Below, piece by piece: positions 39,410 through 63,338 of a stretch of DNA of 64,000 nt. The notes under the pieces were generated by a model. That model was not told where the DNA came from. It saw only the letters and a program-made list of their open reading frames with translations, and searched no databases. The position numbers and the translations under genes were made by a program. How positions within the stretch are numbered: position 1 is the stretch's first letter; each line of letters begins with the position of its first letter. Origin of the DNA: Tubulanus polymorphus (taxonomy: Eukaryota; Animalia; Nemertea); contig NC_134026.1 of assembly GCF_964204645.1 (NCBI RefSeq), positions 11,307,950 through 11,371,949 of the forward strand. Direction: 5' to 3'.

Positions 39410-39438
39410 TCAAATTTTAATAAAAATATGTATTATAA

Positions 39439-39792
39439 ATGGAGAGTAAACAAGCACACAGTGAGAACAACAAATTATTTCTAGATGTAATAAAAGATAC
39501 TTCAAATGTCAAATCAGTAGATTATAAATTTAAGAAGTTAAAAGAATTAATAATCCATAAGAAATATCCTATTACAGATATTGTTACAGTTACTAACAAA
39601 TATGGAGATAAATTAGTTATACACTTAGAATATGAAGGATTAAAAGGAAATACATATAAATTCAGAACATATTTACAGGATAGATTTCATAGATTATCAA
39701 GTGAAGATCTAGAAGAATTATGTTCTGGAGATTTCTATTTCGTATACAAAGGTAAGAATGAAAATGGGCATCATGAAATAGATTTCGAATAA
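39439..39792 (+). CDS. Conserved small Polinton protein, possibly OB-fold ssDNA-binding
   Basis: FKKLKEL...KYPIT...TNKYGDKLVIHL...YLQDRF; intact in B and C; fold is inference. Confidence 0.7.
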   Translation: MESKQAHSENNKLFLDVIKDTSNVKSVDYKFKKLKELIIHKKYPITDIVTVTNKYGDKLVIHLEYEGLKGNTYKFRTYLQDRFHRLSSEDLEELCSGDFYFVYKGKNENGHHEIDFE

Positions 39793-39806
39793 AATGTGTA
39801 AAATAA

Positions 39807-40562
39807 ATGGCGGAATTAAAAGAATACAGAATATTTGTTGATTCTAGAAGACTTACAAATTATAAATCACATAATTTACTAGTACAATTAGATAGAGAAT
39901 TCAAGAATTGTGTAGATTTAAAATTAGTTAATATAAGTTTATGTAATTCTTTTTATAATATATCGGATAAAACTTTTGAACATAGAGGGTTTATGATTTA
40001 TATGAGAAATAAAGATAAATGGTTTCATATATTTTTAAAACCAGGATTATATAATTTAGAATCATTAGCGCAGGAAATTAATAGAAGAGCTCGGTTGAAA
40101 ATCGGGGGTACTTCTGTATTTGAAATTAAATTTAATAAAATTGATAGTACTAATAAAATAAGAATAAAGATATCTAATGAACAACATAAATTTATGGTAA
40201 ACAAACCACTGGCTAAAATGTTAGGAATTAAACCGCTTACAGTTACTGGAAACGCTGAAGGCATCTCAAATATAATACCTTTAACACACTTTTATATTTA
40301 TTGCAATTTAATCGATCCTACAAAAACTTTCGAAGCAACTGAAGAAACCATTTGTAGTTCTAGTATACTAAATATTTTACCGCTAAAAAAGGTTAAACAA
40401 TTTGGAACTCAAATAAATTATAATTTAACAGAATGTGATTTTAAACCTTGCATTCCTAAATTTAATAATTTTAGATTAGAAGTAAGAAATCATAATGGAT
40501 ACTTAATTGATTTGAATAACTTTCCTGTAATTTATGAATTAATTATAAGATGTAAAGAGTAA
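39807..40562 (+). CDS. Minor capsid (penton-like single jelly-roll) protein
   Basis: IFVDSR, NSFYNIS, PGLYN, FYIYCNLI, RLEVRNHNGYLIDLNNFPVIYELII pattern typical of Polinton pentons. Confidence 0.8.
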   Translation: MAELKEYRIFVDSRRLTNYKSHNLLVQLDREFKNCVDLKLVNISLCNSFYNISDKTFEHRGFMIYMRNKDKWFHIFLKPGLYNLESLAQEINRRARLKIGGTSVFEIKFNKIDSTNKIRIKISNEQHKFMVNKPLAKMLGIKPLTVTGNAEGISNIIPLTHFYIYCNLIDPTKTFEATEETICSSSILNILPLKKVKQFGTQINYNLTECDFKPCIPKFNNFRLEVRNHNGYLIDLNNFPVIYELIIRCKE

Positions 40563-40578
40563 TTTTTTCATTATATAA

Positions 40579-40935
40579 ATGAATATAACTGTTGGTCCGA
40601 GTATATGTTTTGGGTTTGATTTTAAACGTGAGAAAGAAATGAAATTTAACGTTACTGATGTAATTATACATATTAAAAATATTGCATTTTCTAATGAAAC
40701 AACATTTGAGTATGAAACAACAATAGATAAAGAAACTTTAAATGAAGAAAAGATTACTAATTTAATTAGAGAATCTTTAAGATTTTATGAATTAGATAAA
40801 GATTTTATCATCGATGATATTAAAAAAATAATAATTGAAATATATACAAATGAAACTAGTAATGAAATAAATGTTGAATTAATCATCACTAAGATAACTA
40901 AATATTTTGATGATAGTAATTTTTTTGATAAATAA
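40579..40935 (+). CDS. Hypothetical Polinton protein (118 aa)
   Basis: Homolog at 57061-57402; TAAATG start. Confidence 0.75.
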   Translation: MNITVGPSICFGFDFKREKEMKFNVTDVIIHIKNIAFSNETTFEYETTIDKETLNEEKITNLIRESLRFYELDKDFIIDDIKKIIIEIYTNETSNEINVELIITKITKYFDDSNFFDK

Positions 40936-41165
40936 ATGAGTGATATTAAGTGGATAATAACTGGATTATATAATGGAGCATTACTATCAGTTGGAACTGT
41001 TGGTTATTCAATGGTATTAAAAAAAGTATTTAAAATGGGAAGTGTTAATGTTGATAGATTTGATATCAATGATATCTTAAAATTAACATTAGCAGTTACT
41101 TTATCTAATTTAACTATTGATTATTTGGAAAAACAAAATATATTCCTCCCATATAAATACATAAT
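40936..41165 (+). CDS. Small hydrophobic Polinton protein (frameshifted end)
   Basis: Homolog at 56839-57060. Confidence 0.75.
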
Positions 41166-41180
41166 TATTTTACTAAATAA

Positions 41181-60011: not shown

Positions 60012-60218
60012 TTTAATACTAAATTTTTTTTTTTAAATTGATTTTAGAAGTTCAATGATTTATATTATGTATTATTTCAATCAGACTTTACTAACACTTT
60101 TAATGTTTAAAAATCTAACTCACACAAATATGAATATTGAAATAATGTTGTAAATATATACTTTTATATTGAATAATCTGTCAATTTAAATGTTATTCAT
60201 GTACATGATTATTTTAAG

Positions 60219-60628
60219 AGTAATAGGGGTAATGGGCTTTCAGGTTAAAGGTTGAATGGTCGAGATCATTGAAAAAGAATATTAAAAGTAATTTAAAACT
60301 ATAATATATTTTCATAACCGTGTGTATTTCAGTTGAATAATAGAATAATAATTATTATTATAATATATTTGATTATATGAATTTGTGTACTGTAAATAAA
60401 TCAATTGGTCGTGGAGCGGAGCGGTAGCGAAGTGGAGCGACCAATTGATTTAATACAATATACATCTAAAATTCAAATTATTGATATCTTAGAATAAATA
60501 TTTAGTTATAATATAAAATGCACACGGTTATGAAAATATATTAAAGTTTTAAATTACTTTTAATGTTTTGTTTTTTAATGAGCTCGATCGTTCGACCTTT
60601 GGCCTGAAAGCCCATTACCCCTATTACT
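60219..60628. repeat. 410-bp terminal palindrome within TIR of copy C
   Basis: agtaataggggtaatgggctttcagg ... cctgaaagcccattacccctattact. Confidence 0.92.
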
Positions 60629-61175
60629 AGCATATAACATAGAATTACAAAAAGAAGAAATTAAATTATTATTAAAATCATATGATTATAATATTAATAG
60701 ATTAAAAGTTATTTTTAAAGATTTGTTGATAAAACCAAATTCTGAAATATAATTGAAAGATAGAATAAAATTATTATTTAAATTAGAAGGAATAACAATT
60801 CTTTCAATTCTAACAGCTGTAATTATGTTATTTACAACAATAGGTTTAGCTATATCAAATTCATTAAAATCTACTCCTACTCCCAATAAACCGGATAAAC
60901 CCCCGAATGATAATAATTCTATACAAGATAAAGTTAAGGATGGTTTAAAGAAATTAGCAAAATATTTATGGGAACTATCTAAAAAATCTGCTGCAGCATT
61001 GCCCGGAGTTATTGCATCAATTGTTGGTTTTATATTGAAATCTGCAGGAAACATTATTAACTTTGCGGCTGAACATATTATTTTATTTTTTAATTACAGT
61101 TGTAAGTGCTATTATTTTTGGGTTAGTGAATATGATATCAAAAGATATCAAGTAAACATGATAAAAAATAAATAA
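60629..61175 (+). pseudogene. GasderminX-like gene of copy B, C-part
   Basis: YNIELQKEEIKLL...KDRIKLLFKLEGITI...SAAALPGVIASIVG. Confidence 0.8.
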
Positions 61176-61195
61176 TTAAATTTTTTGTTAAATAA

Positions 61196-62454
61196 ATGAG
61201 TGGGAGTTATATCAATCCTTCTAAGAATCATAGAATATCTAATGCTATTATCTATTATCTATTATGCTATTATCTATGCTATCATATAATAACTCATAAC
61301 CCTTCTAATATTAATCCTGATGAAACTTTATATGTTTGAATTCCTCGATTAACACAAAATACTTTTTATGTTCCAAATAGTATTTATTTATCAGCCGATA
61401 TAAAAGTAACCGGTAATAATAATAATTATGTTGTCGATAATGTTGGAAGATATTTGATTAAAAAATTAACTATAAAGATTGGTCCAGAAACAGTTTTCTC
61501 ATTAGAAGATTATAATTTATTTGTGCATTATAAAGATTTATGGTTAACTAAAGAAAATAGAAATAATATGATATTTCAAGGAATCCAATCAGAAAACCAA
61601 AATAAATTAAGATCAGAAGCTAATAGCGCAATATTAACTAATGCTTTAGATAAATTGATAAAAAGTATATATGGAAGCAAATATAAAATTCCATTAGACT
61701 TTGAATTGATAAATAATAATGCACCTTTATATAAATACGCAATTCAAGATGTTATATTCGAAATAACATTTGCTCCTGTTAATGAAATTGTAATACCTAG
61801 CGTTAATAAAGATATGGGTTATAAATTATCGAATATATGTTTAGAATATGATACAGTAACTGATGAAAATATTTCAAGTATAATTCAAACTCAATACAAT
61901 CAAGGATTTTCATTATTATATGATTATATTGATAAATTCAAAACTGTAACTATTAATGCAAATGATGAAATAATTAATGAGAATATTAACTTCCCAAGAA
62001 GATCTATTAAAGGTATATTAATATTTTTTACCATTGCAACATATACTAATGGTGCAATAAATGTTGATAATTATTATAATCCTGAAATAACAAAAGTAGA
62101 AATAACTATCGAAGGAATAGCAAATAAAATATTTTGTCAAGGAATGAGAATGATAGATCAATGGCCAGAAATTAGAAAACATTTTATGAATGAAAAAGTG
62201 AAATCATCTGAAAATTGTAATATTAATCAAATTGATTATTATACAGGTAATAAATATGCATTATGGTTAGATTTTAGAACAACAGAGGATAATTCATTAC
62301 ATGGTTCTGGAAAAAACTACAGAACACTAAAGATGGAATACAATTATTCATGACAAAGAATAAAGGAATCAAAAATCTTAAAATGCACATTTATATTATA
62401 TCTGACGCGCAATTAAATATTGTAAATTCTCAATTAAATAGTGTTATGTATTAG
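61196..62454 (+). pseudogene. Major capsid protein of copy B, disrupted
   Basis: Near-identical to 51836-53070. Confidence 0.8.
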
Positions 62455-62486
62455 AATTTGAACTTTAATAAAAATTTATATAATAA

Positions 62487-63338
62487 ATGGAAGGAGGTAA
62501 AGTATATAACCATATTCCATACATCGATACACATGAAAATAATAATGGCTTATATTATGTAATACCTTGTAATATAGCTTTGATATTTGATCCTATTTTC
62601 AAAATTTATAAAACTAAACTAATAGAAATCGATAATAATAAAAGTGGTGTTGTTGATAATTTAAGTAATGTAATTGATAATAATGTAATACCTTCTACAT
62701 CTAATAATGTAATACCTTCTACATCTAATAATGTAATACCTTCTACATCTAATAATGTAATACCTTCTACATCTAATAATGAAATAATATTAAATATTAG
62801 TGAAAATAGGAATTATTGTGATTATTGTAAAAGTGAATTTTCAAACGCTCCATCAAATTGGAATAATCATATGAATACAAATTCACATATTATTAACGTA
62901 ATAGATCGTGTTGGTATAAGAGAATTTATAGAACGCCCATTTAATTATGTTACAAAGTTTGTTTCAAATAAAAAAGTAGATTTATATAAAGATTTATTAG
63001 GTGAATTTTTATCTAAGGAACCTAGTAATGATGAATTAGATTTACCTGCTGCTAAAAAAATATTAGAATCAAGCATTGTAAATACAATATTAAGGTCAAA
63101 CACTAAGAAAGATGACAATGAAAATATAGTTACAGGAAAGCGCATTGATAATAAAGATTCTATGAAACTGAAATCAGAAAATAAAGATATAGTTGAGATG
63201 ACTAATAAGTATATCAATAAACCAATTATTGATGAAGATATGGTAGAGAATTTGAACAAATTGTTAGGGTTTGATGATGAATTGGAGAGTGATGATGAAA
63301 GTGATTTAGAAAGTAATTATCTAACACTCAAAAAGTAA
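62487..63338 (+). CDS. Copy B accessory protein with NNVIPSTS x4 repeat and a C2H2-like finger
   Basis: 24-bp unit x4 at 62679-62774; CDYC...HMNTNSH; acidic tail. Confidence 0.7.
   Translation: MEGGKVYNHIPYIDTHENNNGLYYVIPCNIALIFDPIFKIYKTKLIEIDNNKSGVVDNLSNVIDNNVIPSTSNNVIPSTSNNVIPSTSNNVIPSTSNNEIILNISENRNYCDYCKSEFSNAPSNWNNHMNTNSHIINVIDRVGIREFIERPFNYVTKFVSNKKVDLYKDLLGEFLSKEPSNDELDLPAAKKILESSIVNTILRSNTKKDDNENIVTGKRIDNKDSMKLKSENKDIVEMTNKYINKPIIDEDMVENLNKLLGFDDELESDDESDLESNYLTLKK

Follow-up and report, generated by a model that had tools for sequence, protein, structure and literature searches.

Which RNA polymerase reads the genes of a Polinton, a virus-like mobile element, integrated in animal DNA? 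The question is raised by a 64,000-nucleotide stretch of the nemertean Tubulanus polymorphus (contig NC_134026.1, positions 11,307,950 to 11,371,949; here termed the window, always at its full length), which from ca. 26.6 kb onwards consists of three nested, decayed copies (A, B and C) of one Polinton-type family. An earlier, sequence-only reading had noted that most genes of these copies start at TAAATG, often behind a run of Ts, in the manner of poxvirus late promoters, and had proposed transcription by a pox-like RNA polymerase. Here, we find that a two-part signal, composed of an A-run or T-run, a fixed T, eight bases and TAAATG, is conserved at the gene starts of this Polinton lineage. 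By analogy with vaccinia virus, the balance tips modestly towards a poxvirus-type post-replicative promoter, for which a co-infecting pox-like or related large DNA virus would supply the RNA polymerase.

A two-part signal at Polinton gene starts

Most starts in the window were set by aligning N-termini with those of intact relatives, a procedure that does not depend on the motif, and a few by position or by eye. Among the 26 starts listed in the sequence-only reading, 25 carry TAAATG with the ATG where it had been placed, the exception being 58536 with TAAAATG. Two of the listed copy-A starts, 27767 and 29083, are minus-strand starts, and three further TAAATG starts of copy-A genes (28669, 29524 and 32884, all minus strand) had been absent from the list; 32884 forms a divergent pair with 32943 on the plus strand, the start codons being 58 nt apart. 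The T-run held for half of the list: at least five Ts stand just upstream of 13 of the 26 starts, whereas 10 others have an A-run instead. A comparison with other ATGs, which the same reading had proposed, bears out the enrichment. Its concern that orthologs in copies B and C are not independent observations was handled by counting one start per ortholog family, and TAAATG remains in 14 of 17 families, as compared with 69 of 1373 other ATGs (5.0%) in the same AT-rich element DNA (binomial p ~4e-16) and 29 of 1066 ATGs in the host flank. The three exceptions are near-variants, namely TAAAATG at the pPolB gene and at open reading frame (ORF) 46174, and TAAGATG at the integrase gene.

The second part of the signal lies upstream. 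A T occupies the ninth base before the first T of TAAAT in 14 of 14 unique window genes, in 25 of 28 window starts over all copies and in 50 of 53 starts of the clade of related loci described below, while at TAAATGs that are not starts it does so in 29 of 69 and 24 of 78 cases (31–42%). Clade starts additionally favor A at -13 to -15, and G directly follows the ATG in 37 of 51. T-runs precede most major capsid genes and A-runs precede ATPase, zinc-finger and polymerase genes, a distribution suggestive of late and intermediate promoter classes, respectively. Passenger genes (HNH-type and deoxynucleoside kinase) are also headed by the signal. The kinase occurs in the clade both as a free gene (10343–10981, minus strand, in the relative L001) and at the C-terminus of a polymerase-matching protein (P0114). 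In six loci with head-to-head genes (L002 and L009–L013), the ATGs are separated by 19, 24, 24, 28, 28 and 30 nt, each flanked by TAA. Trans-splicing as the reason for the signal was ruled out, there being no AG acceptor ahead of the ATGs, and a count of T5NT early-termination motifs was abandoned because A-rich coding strands confound it.

A signal that ends in the start codon might act on translation, as an in-frame stop before the AUG or as a special context on RNAs that are long or polycistronic. By its construction, the motif puts TAA in frame with each ATG, and the frequent G after the ATG would suit such a role. However, an upstream ORF ends on this TAA in 1 of 54 cases. Of 58 starts, 51 have TAA and none has TAG or TGA, two stops that close 15 of 54 real ORFs. 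These counts argue against stop-start coupling. T at -3 is also the opposite of the purine that is the usual eukaryotic start context, other Polintons use AAA, and a fixed T that lies roughly one helical turn upstream of TAAAT fits a DNA element. We therefore regard a translational role as very unlikely.

Capsid searches recovered 22 related loci (L001–L022). A quick maximum-likelihood tree was built for 47 capsid proteins, without reference Maverick capsids and with L017 and L022 excluded (the careful search is unfinished); in it, the window groups with L001–L014 and L016 at a Shimodaira–Hasegawa-like approximate likelihood-ratio (SH-aLRT) support of 98. Under a start rule blind to the motif, i.e., the first ATG of each ORF of at least 100 aa, TAAATG heads 52 of 62 starts in this clade and 1 of 21 in the loci outside it (L015 and L017–L022). 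Intact relatives conserve the signal across ca. 50% capsid divergence and over a GC range of 20–44%, including the loci at 40–44% GC (L007, 3 of 4 starts; L008, 2 of 3). A control of 28 other loci picked by polymerase similarity (22–57% GC, some AT-rich; one, L253, matches weakly and lies on a very large contig) has TAAATG at 16 of 291 starts, with AAA most often the commonest context before the ATG. Because the clade loci share the signal across their GC range and AT-rich controls lack it, it is a lineage trait and not an effect of composition.

Chance in very AT-rich DNA, a caveat of the sequence-only reading that the low GC content of the element (21–26%) made plausible, is thereby refuted and retains next to no probability: the background is 5%, the signal persists at 44% GC and it is absent from Polintons at 22–26% GC. 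Its second caveat, that a common invertebrate start (Kozak) context might produce the pattern, fails on the AAA that other Polintons use. At L150, a 29th polymerase-picked locus that represents a second Polinton lineage, 7 of 7 starts are TAAATG. The locus came up first in a motif scan and again in a protein search, and its polymerase is distant from the window clade; the trait thus arose twice or moved by mosaic exchange. The L150 polymerase is ca. 37% identical to its nearest fetched proteins, and its integrase is extended at the N-terminus. TAAATG also stands at 4 of 7 starts of L307, an AT-rich small virus contig, frequently behind TATATA.

Since the signal is conserved clade-wide independently of GC content, contains a fixed T, occurs in tight divergent pairs and is absent from other Polintons, its reading as promoter-like is well supported by sequence evidence. 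This part of the original proposal stands, while transcription by a pox-like polymerase is argued from analogy.

The nested copies and their genes

The copies and signals to which the argument refers are as follows.

26600..34750, minus strand: old copy A, with the pPolB end, a minor-capsid-like gene (32884), genes starting at 29524, 29083 and 28669, an integrase piece and the ATPase gene (27767); TAAATG at 5 of 5 recognizable starts (32884, 29524, 29083, 28669, 27767)
ca. 30000–32480: host repeat inserted in copy A
32943..34153, plus strand: broken VLTF3-like gene of copy A (PF04947) with a TAAATG start
34756..44518, plus strand: left part of copy B: terminal repeat, pPolB, then TAAATG-started genes (39439, 39807, 40579, 40936, 41181, 41849, 42291 and 43606, plus strand)
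41285–41509: host miniature inverted-repeat transposable element (MITE) within copy B
44519..60628, no strand assigned: copy C, a decayed full-length Polinton, delimited by inverted repeats, a 6-bp duplication and the gene it interrupts
45123..45137, plus strand: T-N8-TAAATG that heads an HNH/endonuclease-VII-like passenger gene, placed at the inner edge of copy C's left terminal repeat
47706..47720, plus strand: T-N8-TAAATG start of a conserved 200-aa gene; likewise at 48313 and at the A32 ATPase gene, 49754
53068..53082, minus strand: start of the major capsid gene of copy C, with a T-run and T-N8-TAAATG
54579, 55920, 56370, 56814, 57060, 57402 and 58167, minus strand: starts with the same core signal as the capsid gene
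60009..60030, minus strand: pPolB start, TAAAATG preceded by an A-run, at the right terminal repeat's inner edge; the same in copy B at 35393
60629..64000, plus strand: right part of copy B, continuing past the window end: major capsid gene (TAAATG 61196), zinc-finger gene (TAAATG 62487) and an ATPase piece on the minus strand

Copy C lies within a gene of copy B, whose continuation is found on either side of the insert, and copy B within the pPolB gene of copy A, together filling 26600–64000. With ca. 16.1 kb, copy C is full length, although many of its genes are disrupted by stops, frameshifts or deletions. Its inverted repeats of 615 nt (44521–45135 and 60012–60626) are 96–97% alike, and a 6-bp target duplication with one mismatch flanks it. 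Because 44519–60628 is one full-length element nested in copy B, the starts from 45135 to 49754 go with the minus-strand genes of copy C, and the copy layout of the sequence-only reading needs correction in this respect. In one run (12% of reads used), the element was covered several hundred-fold at ≥85% likeness, a figure without a single-copy control, by whole-genome reads mostly at 90–99% identity; the Polinton is therefore a multi-copy family in the host. In the host flank, a transposon-like ORF (7986–10664, minus strand) is 98% identical to a T. polymorphus protein, the next best match reaching at most 43%, in keeping with this ribbon worm as the host. The host sequence inserted in copy A includes a 154-nt tandem repeat (30684–31332) with dispersed copies elsewhere, which contains what we take to be a CTCF-like word.

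The element is of Polinton/Maverick type, with a protein-primed polymerase (pPolB), an rve integrase, an A32 ATPase, a jelly-roll capsid, terminal repeats and a target duplication. DNA_pol_B_2 matches occur in the window, and the pPolB pieces are 61–88% identical to intact relatives of 1363 aa. A related pPolB (P0123) appears to contain an intein with a LAGLIDADG endonuclease (the intein match being under the cut-off). An rve integrase match on a window piece is weak, yet the integrase pieces are 74–84% identical to the integrase of the clade member L002 (rve E 1.7e-9). The packaging ATPase matches Pox_A32 at E 1e-11, and an endonuclease VII match is present among the window ORFs. The copy-B capsid piece is modeled as a double jelly roll (predicted local distance difference test score, pLDDT, 84.9), and its best Foldseek matches are viral major capsid proteins, with capsids of the nucleocytoplasmic large DNA virus (NCLDV) type ranking first and the mavirus capsid at rank 47. 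An adenovirus-type maturation protease had no Pfam match among 47 window ORFs, where decayed or divergent genes could escape. As a query, the N-terminus of L150, which we assume to be protease-like from its family resemblance (it has no Pfam or PHROG match), likewise found nothing in the window. A neurotoxin helical domain suggested for ORF 32570–32836 was rejected (E 0.005, far below the cut-off); this ORF is a piece of the minor-capsid-like gene.

Candidate polymerases for the signal

No RNA polymerase gene was matched among the window ORFs or the 14 proteins of L001, in which the longest unassigned ORF is at most 485 aa. A conserved 442-aa protein (L001 2996–4321; window 54601–55920, minus strand), with 1372 homolog clusters, is confidently modeled (pLDDT 88.7) and had no fold match, none being polymerase-like. 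As no RNA polymerase gene is recognized in copy C or L001, the signal must be read by other means.

The closest published counterpart is the post-replicative promoter of poxviruses. In vaccinia late promoters, TAAAT plus G covers the start codon and the tenth base upstream is a conserved T among other Ts, and intermediate promoters combine TAAA with an A-leaning upstream region (PMC11980589; PMC5294985). The vaccinia polymerase recognizes TAAA directly, ca. one helical turn from the core (PMC12917281). Among poxvirus sequences, bidirectional promoters belong to the most conserved (PMC3185747), and a fish poxvirus retains TAAATG (PMC4542343). The Polinton thus shares with poxvirus late promoters TAAATG over the start codon, the conserved upstream T in T-runs, A-rich and T-rich variants, and short bidirectional pairs. 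As an example of such a pair, a CATTTA near vaccinia G8R presumably marks the start of the neighboring gene. In the G8R scaffold, it stands 30 nt ahead of the TAAAATG start (PMC12917281). Differences are also apparent: the fixed T lies 9 nt upstream in the Polinton and 10 in vaccinia, nearly all Polinton genes use the signal, including pPolB with its TAAAATG, no early class is evident, and the Polinton is not a poxvirus and has no recognized RNA polymerase.

If the analogy holds, transcription would start in the AAA of TAAATG, and polymerase slippage would add a 5′ poly(A) leader right before the AUG. The element would stay silent until a helper supplied late transcription, i.e., a virophage-like Polinton would use the late machinery of a pox-like helper, a lifestyle as in mavirus.

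Several observations weigh against a poxvirus-type promoter read by a helper. Vaccinia late promoters have T-N9-TAAATG as their published consensus (PMC11423596, Table 1), a spacing found in 39 of 53 clade starts, as compared with the T-N8 peak of 50 of 53. Loci on metagenome-assembled genomes (MAGs) from giant viruses, picked by motif scan and counted after removal of the matched ORFs, have TAAATG at 51 of 316 starts (16%) versus 4.4%, with the fixed T in 18 of these 51. Because such loci favor TAAATG without the fixed T, TAAATG alone does not name a poxvirus, and the helper need not be a true one. Near-copies among the clade loci (L002/L003, L009/L010 and L011/L012) leave ca. 10 independent lineages, so that the counts overstate independence. 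Three divergent-promoter motif scans of viral contigs yielded no large virus with most genes TAAATG-started among the matches listed (80 loci with full flanks per scan); the recovered loci, some of them giant-virus MAGs, lacked clade-like enrichment except for L150 and L307. Capsid scans of viral contigs gave no matches. With no run recorded as RNA, neither RNA 5′ ends nor poly(A) leaders were seen. Runs X1, X2, X5, X6, X7, X8, X9 and X10, each on part of the locus, show no molecule-end peak, which is not evidence on expression, and no poly(A) loose end at TAAAT was present among the rows listed. Run X8, of unrecorded type, covers only the host MITE, 45020–48625 and, in traces, the start of the part compared; 45020–48625 is the sole Polinton stretch with appreciable X8 cover. 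One X8 contig spans the 45135 signal, reaching at least 28 nt upstream of it, and would represent read-through without a helper if it derives from RNA.

A further point that can be read in two directions is the VLTF3-like gene of copy A. An open piece at 33851–34153 matches VLTF3, a late transcription factor of poxviruses and other NCLDVs (Pfam PF04947, E 1e-5; score 25.8 bits, cut-off 25), and, we assume, resembles vaccinia A2. The broken gene around it (32943–34153) has N-terminal zinc fingers and is located where other copies have a 117-aa gene; the zinc-finger and VLTF3-like pieces probably belong to one gene. No convincing relatives of the piece were found, only two matches of 23 residues, and PF04947 was not found in the 8 records searched (of 50). 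The putative gene shows gene flow from large DNA viruses or small relatives. Under helper dependence, it would be a captured helper factor that favors the element's own late promoters. However, mriyaviruses, which are considered nuclear, carry VLTF2/3 and lack an RNA polymerase (PMC11253617), and some clusters of polinton-like viruses (PLVs) carry VLTF3 (10.64898/2026.06.19.733378). The gene therefore cuts both ways and counts in part against a helper.

It is compatible with a scenario in which host RNA polymerase II reads the late promoter in the nucleus together with an element factor, VLTF3-like or other, and no helper is involved. An integrase-bearing element that is multi-copy in host DNA reads, with several conserved genes without assigned function, would accord with this. 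Against it, copy C and the 11.5-kb relative L001 have no VLTF3 match in the ORFs scanned and keep the signal, and the 442-aa protein, a conserved gene of this kind, is also present in relatives without the signal. Moreover, a start in the AAA before the AUG leaves almost no leader unless slippage occurs, as known in poxviral and yeast-element polymerases; to our knowledge, polymerase II follows no comparable slippage rule. We consider transcription by the host polymerase unlikely, though a serious alternative to a viral helper.

The promoters might instead be inherited from a helper-dependent ancestor, perhaps one in another host, with no matching helper in the present host and the window copies as dead insertions. 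All three copies are decayed, the close relatives are short metagenome contigs, none on animal scaffolds, and we know of no nemertean poxvirus. Yet the multi-copy spread and integration hallmarks would need expression in this host at some time, and intact relatives keep the signal across the capsid divergence noted above. Such a relic is improbable in our estimation.

Weighing these points, we retain a modest preference for a promoter of poxvirus type read by a co-infecting pox-like or related large virus. A wider interpretation is more tentative and, in our view, falls somewhat short of even chances: that this Polinton lineage, and independently L150, are endogenous animal virophages adapted to the late machinery of pox-like viruses of marine invertebrates, one of them with a captured VLTF3.

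Comparison with other elements

Poly(A) leaders from a TAAAT-type start are not confined to poxviruses. The yeast elements pGKL1/2 are linear elements of the pPolB type. They share with the Polinton a TAAAN initiator, and polymerase slippage at TAAAT makes 5′ poly(A) leaders in these elements as in vaccinia (PMC6211774). Unlike the Polinton, pGKL1/2 supply a polymerase and a capping enzyme of their own, and their upstream element is of an early type.

PLVs found in entomopoxvirus occlusion bodies have been proposed to be hyperparasites (Barth et al. 2024, PMC11296320) and represent a second case of Polinton-like elements tied to a poxvirus in animals. They are linked to the virus by co-occurrence, contain an adenovirus-type protease and lack an rve integrase (PMC11296320), and the main text of that report contains neither ‘promoter’ nor ‘TAAAT’. 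The main text of two 2026 PLV surveys likewise lacks ‘promoter’, and a literature search, to which subscription papers and supplements did not belong, found no report of TAAATG promoters in animal Polintons.

In protists, a promoter shared with the late genes of a helper marks virophage behavior. New here is this virophage promoter signature, in a pox-like form, in an animal-integrated Polinton, where it is restricted to certain lineages. If the interpretation is correct, promoter grammar would separate autonomous from helper-dependent animal Polintons, unknown poxvirus relatives would be predicted in worms, and a marine worm group would be indicated as host to a pox-like virus.

The closest parallel to such a lifestyle is mavirus, whose promoters match the late motif of its helper and which is induced by that helper (10.1101/068312). 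Mavirus and endogenous mavirus-like elements share with the Polinton a pPolB, an rve integrase, integration, one late-type motif and the lack of an RNA polymerase (10.1101/068312; 10.1101/2025.10.09.676808). Unlike mavirus, the Polinton resides in an animal host, uses a pox-type motif in place of that of Cafeteria roenbergensis virus (CroV), and has a capsid of no close virophage type.

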